A stretch of DNA of 64,000 bases from an uncultured Gemmatimonadales bacterium (GCA_963741945.1 CAVUKA010000001.1:898560-962559), one strand, 5' to 3'; shown: positions 13,919 to 40,375, counted from the first letter of the stretch. Notes: generated by a model not told the origin, from the letters alone. Numbers and translations: made by a program.

Positions 13919-14410
13919 TCACGGACTCGTTTCGAGCGGTCCGGGGAGCCTGGTGCTGTCGGAGAGGATCTCGGGGCGGAGCTGATGCAGGATGTAGAAG
14001 GCGGCCGCATCGACTTGGCGGGGGGTGAGGCGCGAGATGCCCCAGCCCGGCATTCCGCCTCTGTGCCCGGTGAAGATCACGCGGCGCAGCTCCGCGATGC
14101 TGTCGAACCGGAACCCGGGGTCCACCAGAGACGGGGGGTGGAGGTCATACTCGCGGTCATAGTCGGTGTCGCCCCGGCCGACGGGGCCGTGGCAGCGGCG
14201 ACATATCTGCGCGAAGACCATGTTGCCGGCGTCCACGCGCTGGCGGTCGGATGCCCATTCGAGAGTGTCGAACATCGCCGGCGTGTATGCGCTGTCGGCG
14301 GCCTCGATGCGGGACTCTTCGGAGGGCGGCGAGAACTTGTGGTCTCCGCACGCGGAGAGCACGAGCGTCGCGGCGAGGGCGATGGAGAGGAGGGCTGACG
14401 AGCGGATCAT
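13919..14410 (-). CDS. monohaem class-I-like cytochrome c lipoprotein
   Basis: Start ATG 14410 (MIRSSALLSIALAATLVLSAC, lipobox). Single CRRCH with a downstream Met-containing segment (GGMPGW). ATGA overlap with the upstream gene at 14407-14410. Confidence 0.8.
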   Translation of the reverse strand: MIRSSALLSIALAATLVLSACGDHKFSPPSEESRIEAADSAYTPAMFDTLEWASDRQRVDAGNMVFAQICRRCHGPVGRGDTDYDREYDLHPPSLVDPGFRFDSIAELRRVIFTGHRGGMPGWGISRLTPRQVDAAAFYILHQLRPEILSDSTRLPGPLETSP

Positions 14411-14784
14411 CGCTCCGGCGACCGATCGGGATGGATCAGGCTTGCGCCGGGCGCCAGCTGCTGGGCCACGCTCATGGCGGAGTCGGCGCCGGCGGTGTTG
14501 CCGAGCGCGAGCTCGGCCATGTAGATGCCGAACCAGGCGGCAGCGAGGTCGGGCTGAAGCTCGACGGCCTGCCGGTACTGCGCGAGCGCGGCCTCGTAGT
14601 TGTTGGCGCGGTACGCGGCATTGCCGCTGTCCAGGGCGGCCGACACACCAGCAGGCAGGTTCGCGCGCTCGCTCTTCACCTCTTCGGCGCTGATGCTCCC
14701 GGTCTCCTGGTCGTCCGCGGAACCGCCGCACGCGCTGAGCGTGAGAACGGCGAGAAAGCCGATGCAGGCGACGCTGCGCTTCAT
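14407..14784 (-). CDS. small TPR-like lipoprotein
   Basis: Start ATG 14784 (MKRSVACIGFLAVLTLSACGG, lipobox). TPR-like helices (GNAAYRANNYEAALAQYRQAVELQPDLAAAWFGIYMAELALGN). ATGA overlap with the upstream stop at 14781-14784. It occupies the tail of track ORF 14407..16560. Confidence 0.7.
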   Translation of the reverse strand: MKRSVACIGFLAVLTLSACGGSADDQETGSISAEEVKSERANLPAGVSAALDSGNAAYRANNYEAALAQYRQAVELQPDLAAAWFGIYMAELALGNTAGADSAMSVAQQLAPGASLIHPDRSPER

Positions 14785-15542
14785 TTCCCCTCCGCGAGCT
14801 GAGTGCCGGCGCCGGGCTCCGGCCGGGCGGCCGTGGCCCGAGGGCGAGGCAGCACGTGGCATGCCTCGCAGTTCTCGCCGGGATTGTGGTTGACCATGCC
14901 CTGATGGCAGACCAGGCAGAAGGTGCGCGTCCGCGGCACCGAGGCCACGCTCGGTGGCGCAGCCTGGTGGCACCCGGAGCCGGCGCACCCGAGGTGGACC
15001 TGCGTATTGTGCGCCTGCGGCTTCGGCTGCGGATGGCACGCCATGCAGTTGCGCTGCGGCTGATGGTGCGCCGTGTGGCACTTCGAGCAGTCGACGTCCG
15101 CGGCACTCAGGGCGGTGCCGCCGGTGTGACAGTTCGTGCACGCCAGGCCCTCGTGGACCCGGTGCTGGAACGGCAGCGTCCGCACGGGCCGGTTCAGCGT
15201 TCCGATGGTGATGTCCATGGTCCGACGCACGCGAACCGTGAGCGATCGTACGGTCCGCTGACCATGACACCGCGTGCAGCTCGAGGCTACGGGCAGCGTG
15301 TGGTGGCACGACCGGCAGTCCTGGATGCTCGTGACCGTCAGCGCCCCGTGCTCGCGCTGCATGGAGTGACACGCCGTACAATCCACTCCCCGGTGCTGCG
15401 CGTGGTGAAACGTCACTGTGTCCTGCGGCGGCGCCAGCTCGGCCGAGACGCGCCGGATCCGCGTCGGCCGGGGCCGCCTCCTCGCCGTGAGCGGCGAGAG
15501 CCAGCCGGACGATGCCGGGATCGAGCGGACCGGCGGAGGCAA
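14781..15542 (-). CDS. multihaem cytochrome c module, c3/c7-like (8 CXXCH + 1 CX4CH); 5' boundary unresolved
   Basis: CTACH, CRSCH, CTRCH, CTNCH, CSKCH, CMACH, CLVCH, CEACH plus CAGSGCH. TVTFHHAQH..CTACH is typical of c3/c7 modules. The only start candidate is TTG 15542. This frame is closed by TGA at 15567-15569. Confidence 0.7.
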   Translation of the reverse strand: MPPPVRSIPASSGWLSPLTARRRPRPTRIRRVSAELAPPQDTVTFHHAQHRGVDCTACHSMQREHGALTVTSIQDCRSCHHTLPVASSCTRCHGQRTVRSLTVRVRRTMDITIGTLNRPVRTLPFQHRVHEGLACTNCHTGGTALSAADVDCSKCHTAHHQPQRNCMACHPQPKPQAHNTQVHLGCAGSGCHQAAPPSVASVPRTRTFCLVCHQGMVNHNPGENCEACHVLPRPRATAARPEPGAGTQLAEGK

Positions 15543-16560
15543 CCTGGATCGGGCCGCTGCGACGGATCATGGACAGCGGCCGTACCGGAGGCGGCGCATC
15601 CGTCTGGTAGATGTCCTGGTGACACTCCAGACAGTCGTGGCCGGTGGCATGGATCCGGAACTCGTGCGCCTTGTGGCAGTTGATGCAGTTCTCCAGCACG
15701 CCCGGGTCCAGCCCACGGTGGTACGGCGTCAGCGTATCCGGCTGGGAATGACAGCCGCCCTGGGAACACGATTGCACCGCCTGCTGCGGCGTGGTCTGCC
15801 GGTGCGGATCGTGGCACGCACCGCATTTCGCGTTGTGCGGCTCATCCGCCGGGAAATCCTTGACCAGCGCCCGCATCTGATGGCAGGACAGGCACTCGCT
15901 CGCGTCCGGCCGGATCGCGCTGGCCAGCTGGGCCGGCGTGGCCTCCTGCCCCACCTGCACCGTGAAGTCGTGACACGTGGCGCAGTGGATCGTGAGATTG
16001 CCCATCTTCCCGAGCCGGATCCGGGTGTTCTCGTGACACCCGGCCTGCCCGCACGTCTGGTCCGTGGGAGTGAACTCGTGCAGCCCCGAGGAATGGCACT
16101 CCACGCATTTCAGACCCTGCAGCGACGGGTCGTCCGACTGCATGTGGATCCGGTGCCCGGCCGTGTTCGCGACCTGCCGCCACTCTTCGGGGTTGCCCTT
16201 GATGTGGCACTCTGCGCACGCCGAGTTGGGCACGCTCGCGTGCGCCGTCAGCTCCTTCGGCTGCTCGACGATCTGCTTGAGCCCCATCTCGCTGCGCTGG
16301 ACGATGTTCGGGTGATGACAGGCCTTGCACCCGAGCCCCCGGTGCGCACTCTTCGCGAATCGCTGATACGGATCCTGCATGAGGTGGCATTGCAGGCAGA
16401 ACTGGTTGTCGTGCTGCACGTAGTTGTAGGTCCGGTACATGAAGACCGAGCCTACGGCCAGTGCCGCCAGGACAACCACACCACCCACCACCTGCACCCC
16501 GGTGGGGAGAGCGCGCAGACGCGCGACGAGCTTCGTTAGAAGTGCTCCAAGCCGAGTCAT
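15541..16560 (-). CDS. NapC/NirT/NrfH-family membrane-anchored multihaem quinol-dehydrogenase-like module (9 CXXCH + 2 CX4CH); 3' boundary unresolved
   Basis: N-terminal TM (VVGGVVVLAALAVGSVFMY) followed by FCLQCHLMQDPYQRFAKSAHRGLGCKACH, the NapC/NirT signature arrangement. Haem motifs stop near nt 15600, but there is no in-frame stop until 14407. The end given here is nominal (340 codons). Confidence 0.7.
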
Positions 16561-22432: not shown

Positions 22433-24280
22433 ATGACTCCAGTCGACAATGGCGTGGAGAGCTCCGCTCTCGCGGCAGGAACCACCCTGCCGTCCATGCT
22501 CGCGATGCAAGCGCAACATGCGCCCACGGCTCCGGCAATCCTGGCGCCGCAACGCACGCCCGTATCATACCAGACGCTGCAGCGACGAGTGGGCGAGCTG
22601 GCTGCCGATCTCACGGACAGGGGCATCGGCCGCGGTGACGCCGTGGCCCTGGTCCTGCCGAATGGCCCGGAGTCGGCCCGTCTCTTTCTGGCGGCGGCTT
22701 CGGTCGGTGCGGCCGCGCCTCTGAACCCGGCGTATCAGGCGCCCGAGCTCGAGTTCTTTCTCGGTGATCTCGCGGCCCGGCTCCTGGTGATCGACGCCGA
22801 TCTGGACTCGCCGGCGCGCGACGTTGCGCGGGGACTGGGGATACCGGTGGTGGAGGCGGTGCGGGAGACGGAAGAGATGGAGGCGGGACTCGTGCGATTC
22901 GGCGGCGACGGAGCAGCAACCACGAGAGCAGCCGCCGACGGGCCCGGCGCCCACGATATCGCCCTTGTACTGCATACCTCCGGTACGACGTCGCGGCCGA
23001 AGCAGGTTCCACTCTCCCACGGCAATCTGATGGCTTCGGCCGCCCACATCGGCAGTGCCCTCCGCCTCAGCCAGGCGGACCGCTGCCTCAATGTGATGCC
23101 GCTCTTCCACATTCATGGGCTCGTCGCGGCCGCTCTCTCGTCGCTACGGGCGGGCGGCAGCGTGGTCTGCACGCCGGGATTCCATGCGCCCGACTTCTTC
23201 GCCTGGATGGAGGAAACAGAGCCAACGTGGTACACGGCGGTGCCGACCATGCACCAGGCGATCCTCGCACGGGCGCAGGCGAACCGGGCCGTGATCGATC
23301 GGGCCCGACTCCGGTTCGTACGGTCGTCCTCCTCCGCCCTCCCTCGCAGCACGCTGGCGGAGCTCGAGACCGTGTTCGCCGTGCCGGTGGTGGAGGCGTA
23401 CGGGATGACCGAAGCCGCGCACCAGATCGCGAGCAACCCGCTGCCGCCTGGAACGCGGAAGCCGGGGTCCGTCGGTCCTGCCGCAGGACCGGCCGTGGCG
23501 ATCCTCGGGCCGGCGGGAGAGCGCTTGGGCGCCGATCAAACCGGCGAGGTGGCGATCCGGGGCCCGAACGTGACCGCCGGGTACGCCCATAACCCGGAGG
23601 CGAACCGAACCGCCTTCGAACACGGCTGGTTCCGGACGGGTGATCAGGGATACCTGGACCGCGACGGATTCGTCTTCCTGACTGGCCGCCTGAAAGAGAT
23701 CATCAATCGGGGAGGCGAGAAGATCGCGCCCGTGGAAGTGGATGAGGCATTGATGGGACACCCAGGGGTGCAGCAAGCGCTGGCGTTCGCCGTCCGTCAC
23801 CCCCAGCTGGGTGAAGACGTCGCGGCGGCGGTGGTGCTCCGTGCGGGCGCGCACGTCGCGGAGCGGGAGCTGCGGGAGTTCGTAGCGACGCGCGTCGCGT
23901 ACTTCAAGGTCCCTCGCCGCGTGCTCTTCCTGAAGGAAATCCCGAAAGGCCCCACCGGCAAGCTCCAGCGGATTGGTCTGGCGGATCGATTGGGAATCCC
24001 GGCGTTCGATGCCGTACCCGTTGACGCGCCCCCTGTGGCGCCCCGGACGCCCGTGGAGGAGATCCTGGCGGCACTCTGGGGGCAGATTCTGCGATGCGAC
24101 CCGCCGGGGGTCTACGACAACTTCTTCGCGGCCGGCGGCGATTCGGTCACGGCTACGCAGCTCGTGGCGCGGGTCCGGGACTCGCTCCGGGTTGAGTTGC
24201 CGCTCCTGTCGTTTTTCGATGCACCCACGGTGGCCGACACCGCCGCGGAGATCGAGCGTCTCCTGGCTGCTGAGTCATGA
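22433..24280 (+). CDS. adenylate-forming enzyme (oxalate-CoA-ligase/AAE3/Pcs60-like) fused to a C-terminal carrier-protein domain
   Basis: LHTSGTTSRPK, MPLFHIHGL, EAYGMTEA, GWFRTGD, INRGGEKI and KLQR adenylation motifs. C-terminal FFAAGGDSVTATQL has the phosphopantetheine Ser codon at 24143-24145. The track start is TTG 22343; ATG 22433 is preferred. Start is uncertain. Confidence 0.85.
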   Translation: MTPVDNGVESSALAAGTTLPSMLAMQAQHAPTAPAILAPQRTPVSYQTLQRRVGELAADLTDRGIGRGDAVALVLPNGPESARLFLAAASVGAAAPLNPAYQAPELEFFLGDLAARLLVIDADLDSPARDVARGLGIPVVEAVRETEEMEAGLVRFGGDGAATTRAAADGPGAHDIALVLHTSGTTSRPKQVPLSHGNLMASAAHIGSALRLSQADRCLNVMPLFHIHGLVAAALSSLRAGGSVVCTPGFHAPDFFAWMEETEPTWYTAVPTMHQAILARAQANRAVIDRARLRFVRSSSSALPRSTLAELETVFAVPVVEAYGMTEAAHQIASNPLPPGTRKPGSVGPAAGPAVAILGPAGERLGADQTGEVAIRGPNVTAGYAHNPEANRTAFEHGWFRTGDQGYLDRDGFVFLTGRLKEIINRGGEKIAPVEVDEALMGHPGVQQALAFAVRHPQLGEDVAAAVVLRAGAHVAERELREFVATRVAYFKVPRRVLFLKEIPKGPTGKLQRIGLADRLGIPAFDAVPVDAPPVAPRTPVEEILAALWGQILRCDPPGVYDNFFAAGGDSVTATQLVARVRDSLRVELPLLSFFDAPTVADTAAEIERLLAAES

Positions 24281-25152
24281 GTCCCGGCAAGGAGTTGCGG
24301 AACCGACTGGAGGGGCGCGCGACGCTCCCCTTCATAGGCGTCTACGACGTCTTCTCGGCGTCGCTCGCCGGGCGCCATTTCGATGCCCTCTTCCTCAGCG
24401 GATTCGGCTTCGCCGCCAGCCACTACGGGCTACCGGACGTGGGGTTCGTGGCATGGCCTGACATGGTTTCACTGGTCCAGCGGATCCGCGCGATCCTGCC
24501 CCGGCACCACCTTCTGGTGGACATCGACGACGGCTACGGGGATCCCGTGGTGGCCGCACGCGTCGCTGCGACCCTCGAACAGGCGGGCGCGTCCGGTGTG
24601 GTCCTGGAAGACCAGCGCCGCCCCCGCCGGTGCGGTCATCTCGGCGGCAAGCAGCTCCTCGAGCTGGATGAGTACCGGCCCAAGCTGGAGCGGGTGCTGC
24701 AGGCCCGCTCCGACCTCTTCATCGTGGCCAGGACCGATGCGAGTGACCCACCGGAAGCGCTTCGGCGGGTGCGGGCATTCGCCGAAGCCGGCGCGGATGC
24801 GGTCCTGGTGGATGGGGTGGACCTCGACGTGGTCCGGACTCTCCGCGGAAAGGTGGACCGTCCTTGGGCATTCAATCAGATCGCCGGGGGCAAAGCCGAG
24901 CCGCGATCGCTTCAGGAGCTGAGTTCGGCAGGAATACAAATGGCCATCTACAGCACGCCTTGCCTGTTCGCCGCGCAGCACGCCATCGACCAGGCGTTGA
25001 CACAGCTCATGGCCGATGGCGGACGTCTCCCCGAAGTCGGCCCCGGCCGCCCCGGATTGGCTGACTGCAACGCCGTCCTCCAGGAAAACCTTGGCGGCGT
25101 GATGCACCCGGAAGCCGCGACGACTGCGGATTCCGGTCTACGGCCCCGCTGA
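24277..25152 (+). CDS. isocitrate lyase / PEP mutase superfamily enzyme, lyase-type active-site loop
   Basis: DIDDGYG and LEDQRRPRRCGHLGGK (the K/R-x-CGH gating loop of ICL, methylisocitrate lyase and oxaloacetate acetylhydrolase-type members). ATGA overlap with the upstream gene at 24277-24280. Confidence 0.85.
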   Translation: MSPGKELRNRLEGRATLPFIGVYDVFSASLAGRHFDALFLSGFGFAASHYGLPDVGFVAWPDMVSLVQRIRAILPRHHLLVDIDDGYGDPVVAARVAATLEQAGASGVVLEDQRRPRRCGHLGGKQLLELDEYRPKLERVLQARSDLFIVARTDASDPPEALRRVRAFAEAGADAVLVDGVDLDVVRTLRGKVDRPWAFNQIAGGKAEPRSLQELSSAGIQMAIYSTPCLFAAQHAIDQALTQLMADGGRLPEVGPGRPGLADCNAVLQENLGGVMHPEAATTADSGLRPR

Positions 25153-28100
25153 TGCCCATGGCCACTCCTCCGCCGGAAAGCCTGTCCCACCTTTCACCCG
25201 CGGCCCGCGATCTACTCGCCCGCCGTTCCCGCGCGGACGAATCGTCCTCAGCGGGCAGCGAGCCACTCAGGCATCGGCCGGGGGCCACCGAAGCTCCGCT
25301 CTCCTTCGGACAACAGCAGGTCTGGTTCTTTGAGCAGCTCGAGCCAGGCAGCGCGGTCTATCACCTGCCGAAGGAAGTGCGACTGCGCGGCCCTCTGGAC
25401 GTCCCGGCGCTCGAGCGGGCGCTCGGCGAGGTTGTCCGCCGACACGAGATCTTGCGCACGCGCTACGGCACGCTGGCCGATGGCGCGATCCGCCAGCTCG
25501 TCCTCCCGGCGGCCGGACGAGTGGAATTGCCGTGCGTCGATGTGACCGCGTCGGCAACGCAAACGGACGAGCCGTCGGACGGCACCCTGGCGCAACCCGA
25601 AGCGCTGGCCAGGGGCGAAGGCTCGCCGTGGCGGCGACAGGTCGGCCTCGATGCGCTGCGGCCCTTCGATCTTGCGGCCGGAGAAGTCTTGCGGGCAAAG
25701 CTGTATCGCTTCGGGTCCGAGGACCACCTGCTTCACCTGGTCTTCCACCACATTGCGTTCGACGGCTGGTCGATGGGAGTGTTCCTGCGCGATCTCGCCA
25801 GCGCCTACGGGGGCGCGCTGCGAGGGGATGCGACGTTGCCGCCTCTCCCGATCCAGTACGGCGACCATGCAGCCTGGGAAGTGAGTCGGCTGGAATCGGG
25901 CAGGTTCGATGACGTCATCGACTACTGGCGACGGCGCCTTCGCGGCGCTCCGCCGGAGTCGACCTTCCCTGCATCCCGTCCGCGGCAGGTGGACCGGACG
26001 TATGCGGCGGCACAGGAGCATCGCCGGCTCCCAGACCACCTGAAGAGCGCTCTCCATGACATGGCCCGTCGACAGAACGCCACCGAGTCCGCCGTGCTCC
26101 TGGCCGCGTTCCAGGTCCTCCTGGCCCGCCACTCCGGGGCGCGGGACGTCGTCGTGGGCGTGCCCGTCGCCGGCCGCACCCGCAGTGAGCAGGAGGACCT
26201 CGTAGGCTATTTCGTCAACATGTTGCCCGCTCGGTTGGACCTTGCCGACGACCCTTCGTTTCGTCAGGTGGTCGACCGGGTCCGGACCGGGCTCCTCGAG
26301 GGCTTCGACCATCAGACCGTGCCGTTCGACCGCATAATCTCCGACCTGCGCGTACATCGCGATGCCGGGATCACGCCGCTCTTCCAGGTGGCGTTCAACG
26401 ACCGGATTCTCCCGAACCAGGGAGCAGAGTTCGAAGGCCTGGACGTGGAGATGCGCGCTGGCTTCCACGCCCGGCACCTGCTTGATCTCAGCCTGGAGGT
26501 CGGGCACGTGGCCGGGACAATCGAGTGCGATCTGACGTACAGCCTGGAGCTGTTCGATCCGGGGTACGCCCGTACCCTCCTCCCTCAGCTCGAAACGGTT
26601 CTCCAGGCAATGATCGCCGACCCTGACGCCGCCATTACAGCGGCTCCCCTTCTTCGGCCGGCGGAGCGCTCACGCATCATCGAAGCGGGCCGGGGTCCCC
26701 GACGTCCAGTTCCTCCTTCGACCCTGATCCACGAGCTGGTGCAGGAGCAGGCCGCTCGGGACCCGGAAGCCAGCGCCATCATCGGTGACGAGGAAACGCT
26801 CACGTACGGAGAGATGAGGCGGCGGGCTGCAAGCCTCGCTGCGCGCCTGCGTAACGCGGGAATCGCCCCGGAGACGCGCGTCGGGGTCTTCGTCGACCGG
26901 TCTCCCGGACAGATCGTCGCCCTCCTCGGGGTCCTCGAGGCGGGCGGCGCCTACGTCCCCCTCGACCCATCCTATCCGCGGGAACGCCTGGCCTTCATTG
27001 CCCATGACTCGGGGATGGAGGCGATCGTCACGACGCGGCGGCTTCGCTCGCGCGTCCCCCTCGATTCGATCCCCGCCCTCTGTCTGGATGACCCGTCCAC
27101 GCCCGACGGCTCCGACGCGGCACCTGCCAGCGTCATCAGGAACGTGCCGTCGGACCCGCTGGCGTACATGATATACACATCCGGCTCCACGGGGACGCCG
27201 AAGGGAGTGGAAGTTACGCACGCCTCGGTGGCGAACCTCGCTGCGGCGGAGCGTGACCTGCTCCGCGTCGCGCCGGCCGATCGCGTGCTGCAGTTCTCGA
27301 CAATCAATTTCGACGTGTCCGTGGCCGAGATCTTCACATCCCTCACGGCCGGTGCGGCCGTGGTGGTGTGCACTCCCTCGATGCTCACATCCGTCCCGCA
27401 GTTCGTGCGCGCGTGCGAGGCGAAGGGTGTGACGCTGCTCTCCATGAGCACCGCCCTCTGGCACGAACTCGTGGTGTCTCTGGCCGAAGGCGATGTCGAG
27501 ATGCCGCCCGCCGTGAGAACCGTGATGATCGGGGGTGAAGCCGCGCGCCCGGACCGCCTTGAACTGTGGCGACGCCACGGCTCGGGCATACCCCTCATCA
27601 ACGGCTATGGACCTACCGAGACCACGGTCTTCGCAACTGCCCAGGACCTGACTCACCCGGTGGCCGGGGAGGACGCCGTTGTTCCGATCGGGCGCCCGCT
27701 GCACAACGTGGATGTACACGTCCTTGACGAGCGGATGGCTGTAGTGCCGGCCGGCGTTCCCGGAGAGCTGTACATCGGTGGCCTGTGCGTCGGCCGGGGT
27801 TACCATGATCGCCCGGAGTTGACCGCGGAGCGGTTCCTTCCGGATCCGTTCTCCGCACGACCGGGGGGACGCCTGTACAGGACGGGAGACATCGTGCGGC
27901 GACGCGAGGATGGCGCCCTGGACTTTCTCGGCCGTCGAGACAACCAGGTCAAGATCCGCGGGTTCCGCATTGAGGCCGGTGAGATCGAGGTGGCAATGGC
28001 TGCGCATCCCTCCGTGCGCACCGCCGTTGTCGTGCCGCGGCCCGATGGCGTGGGTGATCTCCGGCTCGTGGCCTACGTGGTGCCGGCCAGTGGCGTGTTC

Positions 28101-31100
28101 GACCGGCGCGTTCTCGCTGACCACCTCCGACGGTCGCTTCCCGAGTACATGATTCCGACGGCCTTCGTGCGACTCACGGAGCTCCCCCTCCTGCCCAATG
28201 GCAAGGTCGACCGGAAGGCACTTCCGGAACCTGATCCGGTTGGGGAAGCCGCGTTCGAGCCACCCCGGGGCCCCCGCGAGAGCGCGCTGTGCGAGATCTG
28301 GGAGAACGTGCTCGGTGTGCAGCCGATCGGACGGAACGTGGACTTTTTCGATGTCGGCGGCCACTCGCTGTCTGCCATGCTGGTCGTCGGCCGCGCGGAG
28401 GCGGCGCTCGGGATGGAGGTGCCGCTCCGGGCGATCTTTGAGCACCGCACCGTAGCGCGCCTGGCGGCCTTCCTGGAACGTGCAGAACGGGAACGGGGAG
28501 CTCTGTTCCCGCCGATCGAGACCGGGACCGATGTACCCGCCCCGCTCTCCTTTGCGCAGCGACGTCTGTGGTTTCTCGATCGGCTGGCACCGGGAAGACC
28601 AACGTACAACATCCCACTCGCGTTCCAGCTCCGCGGCCACCTTGATCCCTCAGCACTGCGCAGCGCCTTGCGACGGATCGTGGAGCGGCACGAGCCGCTG
28701 CGCTCATGGATCCGCGAGGGCGTCAGCGGACCCGTCCAGGTCGTCGCGCCTGCCGACCTGTTCGAGCTCGCCGTCGAAGAGGTCCCGGGGGGTCCTGAAG
28801 ACTCCCAACCCCGGGTGCTGCGCCGCCTGGAGGAGGAGGCGCACCGTGCGTTTCAGCTCTCGGACGAAATCCCGTTTCGCGCTCATCTCTTCCGGCTGGG
28901 CGCGCGCGAGCACGTGCTCTTCCTCTGCCTTCATCACACCGCTGCGGACGGCTGGTCCGTCGACATCCTCTTCGCGGAGCTTGAAGCGCTCTACGGCGCC
29001 GCCCTCGCCCGTGCGGAGCCGGACCTGCGGGCGCTCCCGGTCTCCTATTCCGACTACGCGAAATGGCAGCATCGGCACGAGGGTCTCCTGCAACCGGGCC
29101 TCGAGCGTTGGGTGAAGCGACTTCAGGGTGCGCGTGCGCTGGAGCTGCCCGTCGACCGCCCGCACACAGGAGTGCAGAGCGGCGCGGGCGGGGAGAGTCG
29201 AGCGCGGCTGGACGGCCACGTTCTGGAAGAACTGCGCGATCTCGCGCGAAGTGAGCAGACCACTCTCCACGTGGCACTATTGACTGCGTTCCACGTCATG
29301 CTTTCCCGGCTCAGCGGCCAGGATGACATCGTAGTCGGCACGCCCGTGGCGGGCCGCGTTCGGCCGGAGCTCGAGCCGCTCGTCGGCATGTTCGCCAACA
29401 CGGTCCCCATTCGCGTGGACCTCTCCGGCGAGCCGTCGTTCCTCGAAGCCTTGCGCCGTGTCCGCGCCGTGACCCTGGCGGTCTACGGTGATGAGGCAGT
29501 GCCGCTCGAAGCCATGGTGGAGGCCAGTGGGGTCGAGCGCGACGGCAGCGCCAATCCTCTGATCCAGGTGGCATTCGCGCTGGCAGCGGACGGTCGACGA
29601 GCGCCCCGGCTGCACGGTCTCGAGGTGGAGGACCTGGAGCTGCAGACGGCTACCGCGAAGTTCGACCTGTACCTCGCGGCCAATCCCAATGCCGATGGTC
29701 TTGCGCTGCGTCTCGAGTACGATGCGGACCTCTTCCAGGGCCGCACCGCCGCGCACCTCCTCGAGCTCTTCAAAACGCTGGTGTCCGCGGCTGTCGCGGA
29801 TCCCGAACGCCCCTTGGCGGATATCGACCTCTCCGACGACGAGGAGCGCCAATGGGCCGTCGACTGGAACCGGACCGAGCGGCCGTTCCCCGGCGACACG
29901 GTGCACGAGCTGTTCACCACGGTGGCCGCACGTACACCCGACGCTGTGGCCGTGGAGGACCCACACGAGCGACTTACATACGCAGACCTGGATGGCCGAA
30001 GCGCAGCGCTGGCCGGGCAGCTGGTGTCGCTGGGGGTGGAGGCGGGCGAGCGGGTCGGCGTGTTCATGGAACCGGGCGCGCCGCTGGTGGTTTCCATGCT
30101 GGGCATTCTTCGGGCGGGCGCCTGCTACGTTCCGCTCGACCCCGCACTCCCTGGCCAGAGACTGGCGCTCCTGATCGAGGACGCGGGCATCCGGCACGTA
30201 GTGGCGTCCGGCCGGGTTCCCCCCGGCCTCCGGGCGACGGGCGTCGAGATCGTGGAGGCCCGCGACGGTCGCGACCAGCGCCTCCGCGACGTGGCCCGGC
30301 CCGCTTCTGTCGCCGCAACCGCGAATGACCTCGCCTACGTCCTCTACACCTCCGGCAGCACGGGCCGGCCCAAGGGCGTGGCCGTACCGCATCGGGCAAT
30401 CGTCCGATTGGTTCGGAACTCCGACTATGTCGACCTCCGGACCGATGACGTGGTGGCGCAGGTCTCCACCCCCAGCTTCGATGCCGCCACATTCGAGATC
30501 TGGGGAGCGCTGCTGAACGGCGCCCGGCTGACCATCCCGGACAGCCGCCTGCTCTCGCCCCGGGAGCTCGAGGGGTTCCTTCGCGACCGAGGAGTGACAA
30601 CGCTGTTTCTGACCACGGCGCTCTTCAACCAGGTGAGCCGGGAGCGCCCCGCTGCATTCGGATCTCTGCGCCAGCTCCTCTTCGGTGGGGAGACCGCCGA
30701 CGCGGAGGCCGCCCGGCGCGTCCTGGATGGCGGCGCCCCGCCGAAGCGCCTGCTGCACGTCTACGGGCCTACCGAAAACACGACATTTTCAACTTGGTAC
30801 GCCGTCCAGCACGTACCGCCCGGTGCCGCCACACTGCCGATCGGGCGCCCGATCGCCAATTCCACCGCGTGGGTCATGGACGCGCGAGGAAAGCTGCAGC
30901 CACGGGGACTCTGGGGCGACCTGTACGTGGGCGGCGTGGGCGTGGCCGCCGGCTATCTCGGGGCGGCCGCGGCTGAGGCCGACCGTTTCGTTCCGGACCC
31001 GTTCGCAAATGCGCCCGACCGCCGGCTTTACCGGACCGGAGACCGCGCGCGCTGGAACCTGGATGGCGAACTCGAGTTTGGCGGTCGACTCGACACCCAG

Positions 31101-32579
31101 GTGAAGCTCCGCGGGTTCCGCATCGAGCTGGCCGAGGTCGAGGCCGCCCTTCGCCGCTCCGCGGGTGTGCGGGATGCCGTCGTCGCGCTCCGGGGCGAGG
31201 GGGCAGGGCGCCACCTCGTCGCCTATGTCGTGACCGGTGAGGACGCCGTGGACCGCTCGACGCTGCAGGACCAGCTCCGCGAGCAGATTCCGGCCTACAT
31301 GGTTCCGACGGCCGTGGTCGCCCTCGATGCGCTCCCCCTCACGCCCAGCGGGAAAGTCGATCGGCAGGCGCTCCCGGAGCCGGACCCGGTCAGGGTCGGC
31401 GGAGCTCGTCCACCTGGAGATCCTCTCGAGCGCCAGATCGCCGCCATATGGGCGTCTCTCCTCGGTGTCGAGGCCGTGAGCGCTCGGGACAGCTTCTTCG
31501 ACCTGGGGGGGAATTCGCTCCTCGCCCTGGAGATGGTTCGCCGCGTGGAGAGTACCACTGGCCGGCGCCTCGAGCTTCGGGCGCTATTCGAGGAGCCCAC
31601 TGTGGCTCATCTCGCCCGCGTGGTCGCCCGCGAGGCGACCTCCACCACCTCCTCCGTCGTCCAGGTGCGAGAAGGGGATCCTGGCGTCCCCCCCTTCATC
31701 TTCTTTCATGGTGACTTCAACGGTGCGGGGCTTTACACTCGCAGATTGTTGGCCGAGATCGATGAGAGTCAGCCGGTCTATATCGTCCACCCACACCAAC
31801 CGGGCGGGCCGGAGACGATCGAAGCCATGGCCCAGGACCTCTACCCCGCCGTGCGCCGTGTACGCCAACATGGCCCCTTCCGCCTGGGCGGCCACTGCAA
31901 CGGGGGCGTCGTGGCGTTCGAAATGGCCCAGCGACTCGTCGCGGCAGGCGAGACCGTGGACCTGCTGGTCCTGGTGGACGTGCCAGGTCGCAACATCGGC
32001 CTGGCGCGCTACGCCGCCTTCCTCGACCAGGTCGGTCATGCGGCCCGCCTCACCTCCGAACGCCGCCGCGCCCTCTTCCGGGCGACGCGTGGATCGGCTC
32101 AGCGGCTGGTGCATGGCTGGATGAGCGCGGGAGAAGGGGGAGGTTCGTATCTCGCCGCCCCGCGGCGAACTGTCTTTCTCAGCTCCTGGCTGGTCGGTGA
32201 AGCCCGCCGTGTCGCGACCCGTCTCTTCCACGCGGTCCGCCGATGGACGGGCGGCGCAGACGCGTCCCGGCCTCGCCACCCGTACGTGGAGCGACTCGAA
32301 CGAGCAGCCTACTTCGGTTTGGCCATGGAAGCCTACGTCCCCAAGCGCTTTGCTGGCCCGGTCGTCATCGTTGCGCCCGAGCAGGAGAGTACGGACTCCG
32401 TGTCCGTTTCCGCACCGGCTCGGCTCTGGGCCCGGGTTGCCGATCACGCCGAGGTGTTCCGGATCGACGGCGATCACCTGAGTGTGATCGCGGAGGACAG
32501 TCAGCCCTTCGGTCGTCTTCTCGCCCGTCTGCTGCGCCAGGCAGGGCGCCCGCTCCGGGGCGCCAACCCTCGTGAGTGA
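25152..32579 (+). CDS. non-ribosomal peptide synthetase, two modules: C-A-T-C-A-T-TE
   Basis: C1 HHIAFDGWS (nt 25746). A1 LAYMIYTSGSTGTPKGV. T1 GGHSLSA (Ser 28365-28367). C2 HHTAADGWS (28932). A2 LAYVLYTSGSTGRPKGV. T2 GGNSLLA (Ser 31515-31517). TE elbow GGHCNGG (Cys 31896-31898) with GDHLSV. No E domain motifs seen. TGATG overlap with the upstream gene. Confidence 0.95.
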   Translation: MPMATPPPESLSHLSPAARDLLARRSRADESSSAGSEPLRHRPGATEAPLSFGQQQVWFFEQLEPGSAVYHLPKEVRLRGPLDVPALERALGEVVRRHEILRTRYGTLADGAIRQLVLPAAGRVELPCVDVTASATQTDEPSDGTLAQPEALARGEGSPWRRQVGLDALRPFDLAAGEVLRAKLYRFGSEDHLLHLVFHHIAFDGWSMGVFLRDLASAYGGALRGDATLPPLPIQYGDHAAWEVSRLESGRFDDVIDYWRRRLRGAPPESTFPASRPRQVDRTYAAAQEHRRLPDHLKSALHDMARRQNATESAVLLAAFQVLLARHSGARDVVVGVPVAGRTRSEQEDLVGYFVNMLPARLDLADDPSFRQVVDRVRTGLLEGFDHQTVPFDRIISDLRVHRDAGITPLFQVAFNDRILPNQGAEFEGLDVEMRAGFHARHLLDLSLEVGHVAGTIECDLTYSLELFDPGYARTLLPQLETVLQAMIADPDAAITAAPLLRPAERSRIIEAGRGPRRPVPPSTLIHELVQEQAARDPEASAIIGDEETLTYGEMRRRAASLAARLRNAGIAPETRVGVFVDRSPGQIVALLGVLEAGGAYVPLDPSYPRERLAFIAHDSGMEAIVTTRRLRSRVPLDSIPALCLDDPSTPDGSDAAPASVIRNVPSDPLAYMIYTSGSTGTPKGVEVTHASVANLAAAERDLLRVAPADRVLQFSTINFDVSVAEIFTSLTAGAAVVVCTPSMLTSVPQFVRACEAKGVTLLSMSTALWHELVVSLAEGDVEMPPAVRTVMIGGEAARPDRLELWRRHGSGIPLINGYGPTETTVFATAQDLTHPVAGEDAVVPIGRPLHNVDVHVLDERMAVVPAGVPGELYIGGLCVGRGYHDRPELTAERFLPDPFSARPGGRLYRTGDIVRRREDGALDFLGRRDNQVKIRGFRIEAGEIEVAMAAHPSVRTAVVVPRPDGVGDLRLVAYVVPASGVFDRRVLADHLRRSLPEYMIPTAFVRLTELPLLPNGKVDRKALPEPDPVGEAAFEPPRGPRESALCEIWENVLGVQPIGRNVDFFDVGGHSLSAMLVVGRAEAALGMEVPLRAIFEHRTVARLAAFLERAERERGALFPPIETGTDVPAPLSFAQRRLWFLDRLAPGRPTYNIPLAFQLRGHLDPSALRSALRRIVERHEPLRSWIREGVSGPVQVVAPADLFELAVEEVPGGPEDSQPRVLRRLEEEAHRAFQLSDEIPFRAHLFRLGAREHVLFLCLHHTAADGWSVDILFAELEALYGAALARAEPDLRALPVSYSDYAKWQHRHEGLLQPGLERWVKRLQGARALELPVDRPHTGVQSGAGGESRARLDGHVLEELRDLARSEQTTLHVALLTAFHVMLSRLSGQDDIVVGTPVAGRVRPELEPLVGMFANTVPIRVDLSGEPSFLEALRRVRAVTLAVYGDEAVPLEAMVEASGVERDGSANPLIQVAFALAADGRRAPRLHGLEVEDLELQTATAKFDLYLAANPNADGLALRLEYDADLFQGRTAAHLLELFKTLVSAAVADPERPLADIDLSDDEERQWAVDWNRTERPFPGDTVHELFTTVAARTPDAVAVEDPHERLTYADLDGRSAALAGQLVSLGVEAGERVGVFMEPGAPLVVSMLGILRAGACYVPLDPALPGQRLALLIEDAGIRHVVASGRVPPGLRATGVEIVEARDGRDQRLRDVARPASVAATANDLAYVLYTSGSTGRPKGVAVPHRAIVRLVRNSDYVDLRTDDVVAQVSTPSFDAATFEIWGALLNGARLTIPDSRLLSPRELEGFLRDRGVTTLFLTTALFNQVSRERPAAFGSLRQLLFGGETADAEAARRVLDGGAPPKRLLHVYGPTENTTFSTWYAVQHVPPGAATLPIGRPIANSTAWVMDARGKLQPRGLWGDLYVGGVGVAAGYLGAAAAEADRFVPDPFANAPDRRLYRTGDRARWNLDGELEFGGRLDTQVKLRGFRIELAEVEAALRRSAGVRDAVVALRGEGAGRHLVAYVVTGEDAVDRSTLQDQLREQIPAYMVPTAVVALDALPLTPSGKVDRQALPEPDPVRVGGARPPGDPLERQIAAIWASLLGVEAVSARDSFFDLGGNSLLALEMVRRVESTTGRRLELRALFEEPTVAHLARVVAREATSTTSSVVQVREGDPGVPPFIFFHGDFNGAGLYTRRLLAEIDESQPVYIVHPHQPGGPETIEAMAQDLYPAVRRVRQHGPFRLGGHCNGGVVAFEMAQRLVAAGETVDLLVLVDVPGRNIGLARYAAFLDQVGHAARLTSERRRALFRATRGSAQRLVHGWMSAGEGGGSYLAAPRRTVFLSSWLVGEARRVATRLFHAVRRWTGGADASRPRHPYVERLERAAYFGLAMEAYVPKRFAGPVVIVAPEQESTDSVSVSAPARLWARVADHAEVFRIDGDHLSVIAEDSQPFGRLLARLLRQAGRPLRGANPRE

Positions 32580-33321
32580 GATCGCGCGTTCTGGTGAGCC
32601 GCCCCCGCTACAACCCGACGAGGTTCATGTCTGGCGCGCTGTTCTCGGGCTCGATCCAGCGGTCGAGCCAATGCTGGACCGTTTCCTTTCACATGCCGAG
32701 CACAGGCGCGCGACGCTGTTCCACCGGACAGCCGATGCCCGGCTCTTCCGCTTCGCGCATGGTTTCCTGCGACTGATTCTCGCCCGCTACACCGGCACCC
32801 TCGATCCAGGCGCGATCTCGCTGGCGAACGATGCTCGGGGAAAGCCGCGGCTTGCCCGCGCCAGCGGCTGCCGTCCTGTCGAATTCAATCTCTCGCATTC
32901 CGGGGATGCGGTCCTTGTCGCTTTGACCCGAACTCGGCACGTCGGTGTCGACGTCGAGACCCTGGATCGCGCGCCCGATGCCGAGGCCATCGCCCGTCGC
33001 TTCTTCGCTGCGCCGGAGCTGGCCCGCATTCTCGCCAGCCCGCCGGCGCAGCGTGCCGGGTTATTCCTGCGACACTGGGTCATGAAGGAAGCGTTCGTGA
33101 AAGGGTTGGGGCTCGGTCTCGGCGCCATCGACCTCAAGGCGTTCGCCATGGACCCCGACGCCACGAATGGACGCATCCATCCGCTCACGCGCGAGATGCA
33201 CCGGCACTCGAAGACCTGGGCAGTGGCCGAGGTCGCGGCCCCTGAGGGCCACGTCGCCGCCGTTGCCGTCAACACCCCCGTGCTCCGCTGGAAGGGCTTC
33301 GCCTGGCAAGGCCCGATCTGA
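32572..33321 (+). CDS. Sfp-type 4'-phosphopantetheinyl transferase
   Basis: FNLSHSGDAVLVAL, VGVDVE and WVMKEAFVKGLG motifs. GTG start overlaps the NRPS stop (32572-32579). Confidence 0.85.
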   Translation: MSEIARSGEPPPLQPDEVHVWRAVLGLDPAVEPMLDRFLSHAEHRRATLFHRTADARLFRFAHGFLRLILARYTGTLDPGAISLANDARGKPRLARASGCRPVEFNLSHSGDAVLVALTRTRHVGVDVETLDRAPDAEAIARRFFAAPELARILASPPAQRAGLFLRHWVMKEAFVKGLGLGLGAIDLKAFAMDPDATNGRIHPLTREMHRHSKTWAVAEVAAPEGHVAAVAVNTPVLRWKGFAWQGPI

Positions 33322-33358: not shown

Positions 33359-33408
33359 CCTTCGTGTCACGCTGTTCGGGGAGCTGTTCCTTCGTGTCAC
33401 GCTGTTCG
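33359..33408. repeat. perfect 20-bp direct repeat with exact 30-bp period, upstream of the haem-motif sensor kinase gene
   Basis: CCTTCGTGTCACGCTGTTCG at 33359-33378 and again at 33389-33408. Additional CTTCG and GCTGTTC submotifs lie nearby. Confidence 0.85.
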
Positions 33409-33556
33409 CCGAGCCGTACGGGACCGCGCGGACGTTCGTCGCCCGCGCGGGGCGTTCCCCCACGTCGCTGCGGGTGATTTTCCTCCTTGACATGATGTTC
33501 CCTACAAATGAACCTCCAGTCGGGAAGCCCCTGCTGACCTCTGTCGTTGGAGGTTC

Positions 33557-38116: not shown

Positions 38117-40375
38117 GTGATGAGCGGATCCATGCGAGGGGCGGCCGGGGGTGCGGTAGTGCTGCTCCTCATGCTCCTGGGGGAGGGGGTCGGCGCCGGC
38201 GCGGTCCGAGCGCAGACGCCTCAGCAGAAGTACGTGGAAGGCGCGTGTGCGTCGTGCCACGACAGCGACGCGGTGCTGCGGGCGCAGGCGCTCCCGCATG
38301 CGAGCTCGGTGTCGTGCCTCGACTGCCACCACATGGGGCTCCAGACCACGAGCCGGGCTGCGCTGAAGGCCCGGCAGCTGGACGCCTGCCGCAGCTGTCA
38401 TGAGACGGAAGCGGCCGAGACCGGGCACGGAGCGGGGGACGCGACGTGCCTGGACTGCCATGTGATCCATGGCGAGCCGCGGCTGGATTGGGCGAAGAAG
38501 AGTCTCTCCGCCCGGTGCGCGTCGTGCCACGATACTCCGCACAAGCTCCACACCGGCGTCGAGGCGGGAGCACCGCTGTGCGTGGACTGTCATGATGTCC
38601 ACCATACGCGGCAGCGGGCGGCGCAAGAGGAAGTGCGCACGGCAGCGGCGACCGGCGACGTTTCCGAGGTTTCCGCGGGGGAAACCCCGCCGATGATTTC
38701 GGCGTGTGTGTCGTGTCACGAGGACGTCCATCCGTCGCATCCCAAGAAGGGGCGGGACGCGGTCGACTGCGTGCAGTGCCACGACCCGGACGCGGCCGAG
38801 CCGGTGGCGCGCGACAGTGTCCGTCTGGCGGCGGCGTGTGCCAGCTGCCACGAGGACGCGCACCGGACACACCAGGGCGTTGGAGAGGGTGCGCCGCTGT
38901 GCATAGACTGTCACTCGTTCGCGAACGACCCTCCCATCACCGAGCTCCCGGTGGCCGTGATCGCGGACCGCTGCGCGGTGTGCCACCCGGACGCCATGCA
39001 GGAATACCTGAGGGGGGGCCACTCCGTGGGGCTGACGTCGCACGCTTCGCACAAGAGCGTCCCCACCTGCCTGACGTGCCACGTGGACATGCTGGAGGGG
39101 GAGACGAACCGCGCGCCGAACCGCATGGCGGCGGCGAGCACGTGCATCGGCTGCCACAGCAACAAGAAGCTGGCGGAGACGTACGGACTGTCCACGACCG
39201 TGGTGACGTCGTACGAGGACGACTATCACGGCACGACGCTCGGCTTCATGAAGGCAGCCGGGTCGGCCGACTCCGTGGCCGTGCTCACCTGCGAAGACTG
39301 CCACGGCGCACACGCGGTGGGCTGGAGCAAGGAGAAGGTGGTGAGCGAGGTGTGCGAGCGCTGCCACAAGAACGCCAGCCCGAAGCTGGCGGGCGCGTGG
39401 CTCGGCCATGAGCCTCCTGGCCCGCACAACCAGCTGCCCACGTGGCTGGTCAGCATGTTCTACTATTTCCTGATTCCCTTCATGCTGATCGGGCTCTCCC
39501 TGATCATCCTCTACGAGGCGCTCCATGGGCAGCGCCACCGGGCGTGGTCACGGAAGGTCCGCTCCATCTGGGCGCGCCTCACGGGGAAGCAGACCGAGCG
39601 GCCGCGGATGATCAGGCGCTTCACGGTGTGGGAGCAGCTGCAACACGCCCTGGGGTTGACCACCTTCATCACACTCGTGGTCACGGGGTTGCCGCAGCTC
39701 CGGCCCGACCTGGCCACGGCCGATGCCATCATCGGGTTCTTCGGCGGAATCGGAACTACGCGGCTGGTCCACCGGATCGCGGGGTTCTCCTTCGCGACCC
39801 TGCTGGTCGTGCACGTCGGGCTCGCCATCGTGAACGCGATCCGCAAGCGCCGGATGCCGATCATGCTTCCCACGCTCGAGGACTTCGACAAGGCCGTCGG
39901 CACGGTCCGTCACTTCATCGAGAGCACGCCCAGGCCGAAGGTCGGGAAGTTCGACTTCGCGCAGAAGTTCGAATATGGCGGCCTGCTCATGGGCGGCCTG
40001 GTCATGACGTTCACCGGGATCGCCCTGGTCTGGCCGGAAGTGGCCACGCGCCTGCTCCCGGGCGAGTGGATGGCGGCCATGCGCACCATGCACGGCTACG
40101 AGGCCACGTTCGCCACGCTCGTGGTGGTCCTCTGGCACTCGTGGGGAGTGATCTTCCGGCCGGAGATCTTCCCGCTCGACACGTCGATCTTCACCGGCAA
40201 GGTGAGCGTGGAGCGGCTGAGGGAGGAGCACTGGCTGGAGTACGCGCGCCTCTTCCCGGAGGAGGCGGCTAAGGAAGCCGCGCAGGAAGCCGCAGAGCGC
40301 GCGGCCGGTGAAACATCGGGTCGGGGGGGTGCAGGCAGTGAGAAGGCGGTGCCGGACGCGCCGCCGAACGCCTGA
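38117..40375 (+). CDS. multihaem cytochrome c (15 CXXCH) fused to FdnI/HydC-type cytochrome b membrane domain (CbcL-like), paralogue of 7298..9346
   Basis: Signal peptide and 15 CXXCH in about 430 aa, then TM helices with His conserved relative to the paralogue (RFTVWEQLQHAL..VTGLP, LVHRIAGFSF..VVHVGL, MHGYEATFATLVVVLWHSW). Start is GTG 38117 or ATG 38120. Confidence 0.9.
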   Translation: MMSGSMRGAAGGAVVLLLMLLGEGVGAGAVRAQTPQQKYVEGACASCHDSDAVLRAQALPHASSVSCLDCHHMGLQTTSRAALKARQLDACRSCHETEAAETGHGAGDATCLDCHVIHGEPRLDWAKKSLSARCASCHDTPHKLHTGVEAGAPLCVDCHDVHHTRQRAAQEEVRTAAATGDVSEVSAGETPPMISACVSCHEDVHPSHPKKGRDAVDCVQCHDPDAAEPVARDSVRLAAACASCHEDAHRTHQGVGEGAPLCIDCHSFANDPPITELPVAVIADRCAVCHPDAMQEYLRGGHSVGLTSHASHKSVPTCLTCHVDMLEGETNRAPNRMAAASTCIGCHSNKKLAETYGLSTTVVTSYEDDYHGTTLGFMKAAGSADSVAVLTCEDCHGAHAVGWSKEKVVSEVCERCHKNASPKLAGAWLGHEPPGPHNQLPTWLVSMFYYFLIPFMLIGLSLIILYEALHGQRHRAWSRKVRSIWARLTGKQTERPRMIRRFTVWEQLQHALGLTTFITLVVTGLPQLRPDLATADAIIGFFGGIGTTRLVHRIAGFSFATLLVVHVGLAIVNAIRKRRMPIMLPTLEDFDKAVGTVRHFIESTPRPKVGKFDFAQKFEYGGLLMGGLVMTFTGIALVWPEVATRLLPGEWMAAMRTMHGYEATFATLVVVLWHSWGVIFRPEIFPLDTSIFTGKVSVERLREEHWLEYARLFPEEAAKEAAQEAAERAAGETSGRGGAGSEKAVPDAPPNA

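Follow-up and report, generated by a model that had tools for sequence, protein, structure and literature searches.

Which acyl group starts the peptide made by a nonribosomal peptide synthetase (NRPS) that opens with a condensation (C) domain? The question is raised by a four-gene operon at positions 22433-33321 of a 64,000-nucleotide stretch of DNA from an uncultured Gemmatimonadales bacterium (GCA_963741945.1, CAVUKA010000001.1:898560-962559), which is called the window below. Four overlapping open reading frames (ORFs), all in one direction on the + strand, encode an adenylase fused to a carrier domain (the loader), a protein of the isocitrate lyase/phosphoenolpyruvate mutase (ICL/PEPM) superfamily (the lyase), the NRPS and an Sfp-type 4'-phosphopantetheinyl transferase (PPTase). 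Genes 1 and 2 join in ATGA (24277-24280), genes 2 and 3 in TGATG (25150-25154) and genes 3 and 4 in a GTGAGTGA overlap (32572-32579). The four coupled genes and all three junctions were as described in an earlier interpretation made from the DNA alone (the sequence-only reading), and its domain calls, namely an adenylase with a GGDS carrier, an ICL/PEPM protein, an NRPS of C, adenylation (A), carrier (T) and thioesterase (TE) domains in the order C-A-T-C-A-T-TE, and an Sfp-type PPTase, were confirmed by Pfam and motifs. The best reading of the product, to which we give about an even chance on the basis of the encoded proteins, would be a dipeptide X-Ile/Val capped with an N-oxalyl group or, as second choice, an N-glyoxylyl group. 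The parts of the operon are:

22433..24280, + strand: loader, an A domain resembling AAE3 and oxalate-CoA ligases with a fused T domain (Pfam, phmmer against the PDB, pocket residues)
24277..25152, + strand: carbon-carbon lyase of the ICL/PEP mutase superfamily, distinct subfamily, candidate oxaloacetate acetylhydrolase (Pfam, NCBIfam, PDB alignments, active-site columns)
25152..32579, + strand: NRPS C1-A1-T1-C2-A2-T2-TE, 2475 aa (Pfam, NCBIfam, motifs)
25290..26651, + strand: C1 condensation domain, LCL-like (nearest PDB relatives)
26742..28205, + strand: A1 adenylation domain, code DVASMGGVFK (code extracted by alignment)
28284..28475, + strand: T1 carrier domain, GGHSL (Pfam, motif)
28539..29852, + strand: C2 condensation domain, HHTAADG (Pfam, motif)
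29898..31376, + strand: A2 adenylation domain, code DAFFLGVTFK (code extracted by alignment)
31434..31631, + strand: T2 carrier domain, GGNSL (Pfam, motif)
31662..32576, + strand: divergent thioesterase domain with the Cys nucleophile motif GHCNGG at nt 31890-31907 (Pfam, alignment with the NocB TE)
32572..33321, + strand: Sfp-type 4'-phosphopantetheinyl transferase (Pfam ACPS and AASDHPPT_N)

The loader contains the Pfam domains AMP-binding, AMP-binding_C and PP-binding (46.7 bits for the last), with the A domain spanning aa 1 to ~525, the T domain aa ~544-606 and the phosphopantetheinyl Ser571 lying in GGDS. In a phmmer search against the PDB, the three top matches were the oxalate-CoA ligases AAE3 of A. 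thaliana (AtAAE3, 408 bits, E 4e-121), the oxalyl-CoA synthetase of Lathyrus (LsOCS, 398 bits) and Pcs60 of yeast (355 bits). The first non-oxalate family was malonyl-CoA synthetase with 226 bits, followed by FadD13 with 223; solved fatty-acyl and aryl acid ligases reached at most 223 bits, and amino-acid adenylases likewise remained below malonyl-CoA synthetase. The identity to AtAAE3 was 44.6% across 504 aa (BLASTP), and the likeness to AAE3 and Pcs60 that the sequence-only reading had drawn from motifs was thus borne out by alignment.

The oxalate pocket of AtAAE3 is formed by V215-H216, C288-S289, A313-M314, H319 and K500, and S289 and H319 were reported to be kept solely among oxalyl-CoA synthetases (PMC8905533). 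From AtAAE3 residue to loader residue, the pocket reads H214H, V215I, H216H, C288S, S289S, A313G, M314M, H319H and K500K, corresponding to H226, I227, H228, S299, S300, G324, M325, H330 and K510 in loader numbering. S289, H319, H216, M314 and K500 (AtAAE3 numbering, which is kept below) were invariant in an alignment of 120/120 nearest loader homologues, and the three changes relative to AAE3 appear conservative. Similarity scores and pocket residues, among them the retained Ser289, His319 and Lys500, are strong evidence for placing the loader among the oxalate-CoA ligases and against a place among ligases of fatty or aryl acids, in agreement with the sequence-only reading. From every characterised member of this clade, the loader is set apart by its C-terminal carrier domain.

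Gene 2 matches the Pfam family PEP_mutase/ICL with 120 bits, and its scores remained below the cut-offs of the NCBIfam equivalog models for prpB (TIGR02317, 148/354), carboxyphosphoenolpyruvate (CPEP) mutase (TIGR02319, 119/420) and PEP mutase (TIGR02320, 72/320). The protein keeps the fold and the Mg-binding acidic set D82, D84 and E111, and its gating loop EDQRRPRRCGH contains the catalytic Cys119. As the triad C119-G120-H121 of this loop is invariant in the family, gene 2 is a lyase-type member of the superfamily. The residues by which E. coli PrpB binds the carboxylate of succinate, T212 and R241, are replaced by Ile202 and Phe231, both invariant in the family, and this state resembles that of the acetate- and propionate-releasing enzymes as far as can be judged from the alignment. 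Identity with methylisocitrate lyase (MICL), which had been named beforehand as incompatible with the proposed pathway, or with isocitrate lyase was ruled out by the score of 148 against a cut-off of 354 and by the replacement of T212 and R241; a PEP mutase was ruled out by the curated cut-offs and the substrate-binding residues.

A positive indication of the reaction comes from Ser226, which lies in the invariant motif YSTPCLF and aligns with a Ser of the oxaloacetate acetylhydrolase (OAH) of C. parasitica (IFSF) and of the petal death protein (PDP), while 2,3-dimethylmalate lyase (DMML), MICL and the Bacillus protein 4iqd carry Pro at this position. A conserved active-site serine, Ser281 in A. 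niger, is described as marker of OAH activity in secondary citations (PMC8224569, PMC3256194), from which, together with the alignment made here, the correspondence of Ser226 to this marker is taken. Ser226 was invariant in all 83 lyase-family sequences drawn from three genomic contexts. Judged by these residues, the lyase could plausibly produce oxalate from oxaloacetate, and among the guesses at its reaction this one has the best support.

In the NRPS, Pfam recognizes two Condensation, two AMP-binding and two PP-binding domains and a Thioesterase in the order C-A-T-C-A-T-TE, and partial matches to the NCBIfam models MxcG and EntF were obtained. Both C domains contain HHxxxDG (HHIAFDG at aa 199, HHTAADG at aa 1261), and the GGxS serine is present in all three carrier domains of the operon, as GGHSL and GGNSL in those of the NRPS. 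Since the NRPS starts with a C domain, the acyl donor must come from the carrier domain of the loader. The sequence-only reading had assigned the condensation to a starter C domain, and this part did not hold: the nearest PDB relatives of C1 are the LCL-type domains of Txo2, Txo1 and a DhbF-like protein (216-229 bits), whereas the lipo-initiation starter C domains RzmA-Cs, CDA-C1 and SrfAA-Cs gave only 54, 80 and 111 bits. By its sequence relationships, C1 is an ordinary LCL-like C domain and not a dedicated starter C. For A1, with the code DVASMGGVFK, the small residues at positions 239, 278, 301 and 322 may point to a large hydrophobic or aromatic residue in comparison with published codes, short of a firm assignment. 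The A2 code, DAFFLGVTFK, recurs identically in the homologous loci L001 and L013; we take it to be Ile/Val-like, again in comparison with published codes.

The thioesterase domain is divergent (Pfam Thioesterase, 57 bits), and the Cys of its motif GHCNGG (NRPS aa 2247-2252) falls on the catalytic Ser of the NocB TE in the alignment. The pattern GxCxG was also found in the TEs of L001, L002, L028, L054, L064, L090, L095, L098, L099, L103, L119, L128 and P0062. Outside these clusters, SulM and ObiF are known to have Cys-TEs, which form strained beta-lactam/beta-lactone rings. Gene 4 (249 aa) is recognized as an Sfp-type PPTase by ACPS (PF01648, 64 bits) and AASDHPPT_N (PF22624, 30.6 bits); against the NCBIfam model HetI it scored 133 bits, under the cut-off of 370.

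These assignments would combine into the following pathway. The lyase would hydrolyse oxaloacetate to oxalate and acetate, and the loader, going by its homology and pocket residues, would convert oxalate to oxalyl-AMP and then to oxalyl-S-T on its own carrier, not to the CoA ester. The phosphopantetheine arms that turn the three carrier domains into their holo forms would be attached by the PPTase of the cluster. C1 is then predicted to join oxalyl-S-T with the first amino acid to N-oxalyl-aa1-S-T1, a step for which the architecture is observed and the chemistry is a projection from it. Module 2 would add Ile or Val, with C2 yielding N-oxalyl-aa1-(Ile/Val)-S-T2, and the Cys-TE would free the N-oxalyl dipeptide HOOC-CO-NH-X-(Ile/Val)-OH.

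The combination of loader, lyase and NRPS was found again at each of three loader homologues that were looked up (L001, L002 and L003). L001 is a syntenic relative with 81% identity, sited between ffh and the kinase; its cluster (L001:10001-20852) is just 63-83% identical in its genes to window 22433-33321, whereas Ffh is >90% identical (same 90% cluster), and the cluster thus evolves faster than its flanks. The A1 codes are DAARIGVVWK in L001 vs DVASMGGVFK in the window, and the PPTase of L001 is either part of the NRPS ORF (2707 aa) or directly next to it. L002 holds a version with a single C-A-T-TE module, and L003 is a Gemmatimonadales cluster of at least three modules with the lyase gene in first position. 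In the window, L001 and L002, the lyase gene sits between loader and NRPS and is translationally coupled.

A scan for the lyase family with one genome per species returned at least 495 species, and the genomic contexts were sorted among the 80 best loci. In a first context, which comprises 13/80 of these loci, the lyase accompanies an AAE3-like A-T loader and an NRPS starting with C; it occurs in Gemmatimonadales, Burkholderiales, Gammaproteobacteria, Cyanobacteria, Phycisphaerae and Nitrospiraceae. The NRPSs of the loader and lyase clusters have one, two or at least three modules, and the first-module codes were all different in this context, with Gly-like, Thr-like and Gln-like codes among them, indicating that the cap is conserved and not the peptide. 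The pair of loader and lyase behaves as a portable starter cassette on NRPSs of varied length and specificity in many phyla, and this cassette is widespread in environmental bacteria and not confined to the genome studied here.

Homologues of the loader with fused A and T domains are numerous (8000 matches at E <1e-30, 57-64% identity), and a few of them are named oxalate-CoA ligase by JGI; unfused homologues with 57-62% identity occur elsewhere. In a reciprocal metagenome scan with the loader family, neighbours were counted in the retrieved flanks of 44 carrier-fused and 36 unfused homologues, the counts for the fused forms being lower bounds because many contigs are short. A C domain adjoined the loader in 19/44 fused vs 0/36 unfused cases (Fisher p = 1.6e-6) and an ICL-like lyase in 7/44 vs 0/36 (Fisher p = 0.015), which indicates that the fusion marks NRPS priming and that the lyase is a frequent, optional accessory. 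The AAE3-like loader was also observed in an A-T-TE tridomain form, at L085:6988-12694 (P0062) and in P0092, P0100, L094 and L095. The L085 gene lies amid genes for a glycosyltransferase, a sulfotransferase and Asn-synthase-like and Bac_transf proteins, with no lyase and no C domain there, an arrangement suggesting that the same acyl group is passed on to a glycan or a lipid in this case.

Two further contexts of the lyase were distinguished. In the second, a polytopic membrane protein, a ligase of the ANL (acyl-CoA synthetase, NRPS adenylation domain, luciferase) superfamily other than the loader, a free carrier protein and the lyase form a cassette, which is hosted by Accumulibacter, Propionivibrio, Methylophilaceae, Verrucomicrobia and others. 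At L014:6797-10834 it consists of a 458-aa membrane protein, the ANL ligase, an 85-aa carrier protein (GLIDSLALV) and, in last position, the lyase, whose start overlaps the stop of the carrier gene; the same context was found at L005-L011, L016-L021, L023, L024, L026, L027, L030, L032, L033 and L044. The free carrier protein is present in 19/21 loci, and an LtaS/sulfatase-family protein in 6/19. The 458-aa membrane protein had no match in Pfam, NCBIfam or the PDB, and an MBOAT/DltB identity that had been seen by eye was dropped for this reason. The layout may recall a Dlt-type envelope-acylation system, which is only a reading by analogy. The third context is that of lone lyase genes in actinomycetes (L029, L031, L034, L036, L038, L040, L042-L084), with 56-59% identity and identical active-site columns; they have no conserved neighbours save an SBF-like transporter in 10/44 loci. 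Since the active-site columns are identical across all three contexts, the enzyme is probably isofunctional throughout.

A further link concerns thiamine pyrophosphate (TPP) enzymes of the oxalyl-CoA decarboxylase/2-hydroxyacyl-CoA lyase (Oxc/HACL) family, which adjoin the loader and/or the lyase at L132:3950-5686, L105:3826-5439, L104:2548-3933, L025:15225-16847 and L056:1231-2829 and score 332 bits to oxalyl-CoA decarboxylase (PDB 8vzj) vs 181 to acetolactate synthase. The window itself contains no Oxc/HACL-type TPP enzyme. From gene context, these neighbours are an independent indication that the clusters operate with oxalyl or formyl thioesters, and an Oxc/HACL-type enzyme could yield formyl or 2-hydroxyacyl units from oxalyl-S-carrier. 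Tentatively, and at clearly less than an even chance, loader and lyase may represent a widespread and undescribed route from oxaloacetate to a carrier-bound oxalyl block, which would be fed to NRPSs, to Oxc/HACL enzymes or to the putatively envelope-decorating cassette of ligase, carrier and membrane protein. If this is true, the NRPS branch, with one to at least three modules, would give N-oxalyl amino acids and peptides, i.e. oxamic acids, which might plausibly bind metals or mimic 2-oxoglutarate or pyruvate.

Several observations weigh against oxalate as the cap or against the lyase as its source. The pocket of the loader departs from that of AAE3 at three positions (V215I, C288S and A313G), and AAE3-type enzymes retain measurable activity with glyoxylate (PMC8905533). 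The ANL ligase of the second lyase context, 28% identical to the loader, has Ser in place of His319; if both ligases use one acid, His319 is not essential for its recognition. By BLASTP, the lyase is 34.2% identical to PDP, 34.1% to the Bacillus 4iqd protein, 33.6% to DMML, 32.4% to OAH and 32.2% to MICL, and being equally distant (32-34%) from every characterised lyase it receives no function from similarity alone. The promiscuous PDP has the marker Ser as well, and the family has active-site changes of its own that are invariant, namely D85 (Thr), R117 (gating-loop Lys), D179 (Glu) and A203 (Glu), besides the further invariant subfamily substitutions C229 and F231. With these changes, and with no closer relation to OAH than to PDP, DMML or MICL, oxalate formation by the lyase stays a step that we infer; of the earlier proposal that the ICL-like protein forms oxalate, the marker Ser stands in support, whereas a specific sequence affinity to OAH was not found. 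Finally, lone copies of the lyase occur in at least 44 actinomycete genomes (Streptomyces, Kutzneria, Amycolatopsis, Actinomadura and relatives), and 37/44 fused-loader loci have no lyase in the retrieved flanks, many of which are on short contigs.

The chief alternative is the same assembly logic with glyoxylate or another small acid, to which we concede an appreciable minority chance. The lyase would then free glyoxylate or pyruvate from a 2-hydroxy acid of the isocitrate, malate or citramalate type, and the loader would tether the 2-oxo acid, malonate or glycolate, leading to an N-glyoxylyl or N-pyruvoyl dipeptide. Glyoxylate or pyruvate is the generic product of ICL-family lyases, and neither the lyase, which is not specifically OAH-like and has unique active-site changes, nor the three altered pocket positions of the loader speak for oxalate in particular. 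The kcat/KM values of LsOCS are 1.1e5 for oxalate, 1.8e3 for glyoxylate and 12 for malonate, with undetectable activity on succinate, glycolate and lactate, so that glyoxylate is merely 61-fold poorer than oxalate, while the preference over malonate is 10^4-fold and the AAE3 type accepts malonate, succinate, glycolate and lactate very poorly or not at all (PMC8905533). Oxalate is further favoured by the family-wide invariance of Ser289 and His319, which bind its distal carboxylate, by the marker Ser, which, going by the secondary citations, favours a gem-diol substrate (oxaloacetate), and by the Oxc/HACL-family neighbours, which indicate oxalyl or formyl thioesters.

Alternatively, the loader could draw oxalate or another acid from general metabolism, and the lyase could have a separate role, e.g. 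in self-protection, in balancing anaplerosis or in modifying or breaking down the product. Such a division has a small chance in our view; it would account for the fused loaders lacking an adjoining lyase and for the frequent lone gene of actinomycetes, but the lyase is coupled between loader and NRPS in the window, L001 and L002, it recurs beside two unrelated pairs of adenylase and carrier, and none of the 36 unfused CoA-ligase homologues adjoins a lyase.

Very improbable is an ordinary lipopeptide or acyl-peptide cluster in which a FadD7-like loader activates a fatty or aryl acid. The top NCBIfam model for the loader is indeed 'FadD7 family fatty acid-CoA ligase' with 425 bits, but since this falls well short of the cut-off of 650, the name does not fit, and a fatty or aryl acid loader was rejected on the PDB scores (at most 223 bits for the solved ligases vs 408 for AAE3), on the pocket, which is of the closed oxalate type, and on the type of C1, which is remote from lipo-initiation starter C domains. 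Next to no chance is left for a phosphonate peptide cluster in which gene 2 would act as PEP mutase or carboxy-PEP mutase. Phosphinothricin tripeptide biosynthesis is an example of the kind and likewise employs an A-T loader and C-A-T modules; the Pfam family bears the name PEP_mutase and the top PDB match is annotated as CPEP mutase, but the NCBIfam scores (72 vs 320 and 119 vs 420) and the lyase-type Cys gating loop contradict this, and the window contains no phosphonopyruvate decarboxylase or other phosphonate gene. The N-oxalyl dipeptide proposed in the sequence-only reading is supported in part, with a strong case for the loader and a plausible one for oxalate formation by the lyase, and those of its suggested checks that were feasible in silico each favoured it.

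The operon lies between unrelated genes and therefore represents a compact, self-contained island: upstream of its four genes are ffh, rimM, trmD and rnhB, and downstream follow genes for a histidine kinase and a sigma-54 response regulator. Ffh shares 86-90% identity with homologues from metagenome-assembled genomes (MAGs) designated Longimicrobiales or Gemmatimonadota, which places the host in the Gemmatimonadota. GC content at third codon positions (GC3) is ~0.80 in the four genes vs ~0.89 in the adjacent genes. Farther away in the window lie genes for multihaem cytochromes, purA, a dapA-like gene and signalling genes. A search of the whole 64 kb for transporter, MbtH and tailoring genes found none, the remainder consisting of housekeeping, signalling and cytochrome genes, and Oxc, Frc, YfdE and YfdV of oxalate catabolism were likewise sought in the window and not found. 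A promoter and terminator scan over the operon gave no signal exceeding shuffled expectation. The PPTase stop is separated from the histidine kinase gene by a spacer of 235 nt, in which CCTTCGTGTCACGCTGTTCG... occurs twice in tandem (window 33359-33417; copies 90% identical and spaced by 30 nt) and may be a binding site of a regulator. Three large multihaem c-type cytochromes are encoded at window 7298-9529 (- strand), 14407-16560 (- strand) and 38117-40375 (+ strand), one of which carries a fused membrane domain resembling cytochrome b561, and they suggest that this member of the Gemmatimonadota transfers electrons extracellularly or in the periplasm.

Compared with known systems, the loader shares with the oxalate-CoA ligases AAE3, LsOCS and Pcs60, its nearest solved relatives, the ANL core motifs and Ser289, His319 and Lys500. 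The characterised ligases are stand-alone proteins that pass oxalyl on to CoA in oxalate catabolism or in the synthesis of beta-N-oxalyl-L-alpha,beta-diaminopropionic acid (beta-ODAP), whereas the loader has a fused carrier and is predicted to deliver to an NRPS C domain. In plants, the beta-ODAP pathway employs a BAHD acyltransferase. It resembles the present proposal in leading to an N-oxalyl amino acid via an oxalyl thioester activated by AAE3 (PMC8905533), and differs from it in using oxalyl-CoA without a carrier protein or NRPS. With fungal OAH, as with PDP and DMML, the lyase has in common the fold, the Mg-binding Asp/Glu set, the Cys-Gly-His gating loop, the marker serine and the lack of the succinate-binding residues; unlike OAH, it is bacterial, occurs in at least 495 species and three contexts, has invariant substitutions of its own and, at 32-34% identity, is no nearer to OAH than to MICL.

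Priming of an NRPS by a free-standing pair of adenylase and carrier is already classical logic. In DhbE/DhbB-DhbF, EntE/EntB-EntF, MxcE/F-MxcG and lipoinitiation by fatty acyl-AMP ligase (FAAL) and acyl carrier protein (ACP), an NRPS starting with C is given a non-amino-acid acyl group by a separate carrier, as in the operon. In contrast to aryl-acid and FAAL priming, the operon uses an adenylase of the oxalate-CoA ligase clade, fuses it to the carrier and co-encodes a lyase. Fum10 is presumably grouped with AAE3 and Pcs60 in one CDD subfamily. In fumonisin biosynthesis, Fum10 and Fum14 parallel the operon in that an acyl-CoA-synthetase-type enzyme activates a small polycarboxylic acid and a PCP-C NRPS protein transfers it (PMC7711896); by their description, on which this comparison is based, they differ in being fungal, in using a tricarboxylic acid that is esterified to a polyketide and in having no fused carrier. 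In the open-access literature, we found no description of a carrier-fused enzyme of the oxalate-CoA ligase clade feeding an NRPS, of its pairing with an ICL/PEPM lyase or of the bacterial lyase subfamily, consistent with the sequence-only reading, to which no described NRPS with this priming logic was known.

If the proposal is confirmed, oxalate would be added to the starter units of NRPSs, and the oxalate-CoA ligase clade, hitherto associated only with oxalate catabolism and beta-ODAP synthesis, would have been recruited for carrier loading. Two sets of motifs provide a handle for mining hundreds of uncharacterised clusters, MPLFHIHG and YGMTEA(A/S)H of the loader in combination with a fused T domain, and D(I/V)DDGY and EDQxRPRxCGH of the lyase; the clusters are mostly from uncultured soil and water phyla such as Gemmatimonadota, Binatia, Verrucomicrobiota and Cyanobacteria. 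The analysis also draws attention to a bacterial ICL/PEPM subfamily that is large, with members in at least 495 species, and has no assigned reaction. N-oxalyl amino acids of the N-oxalylglycine type are classic inhibitors of 2-oxoglutarate oxygenases, so that the predicted products might have bioactivity as antimetabolites.

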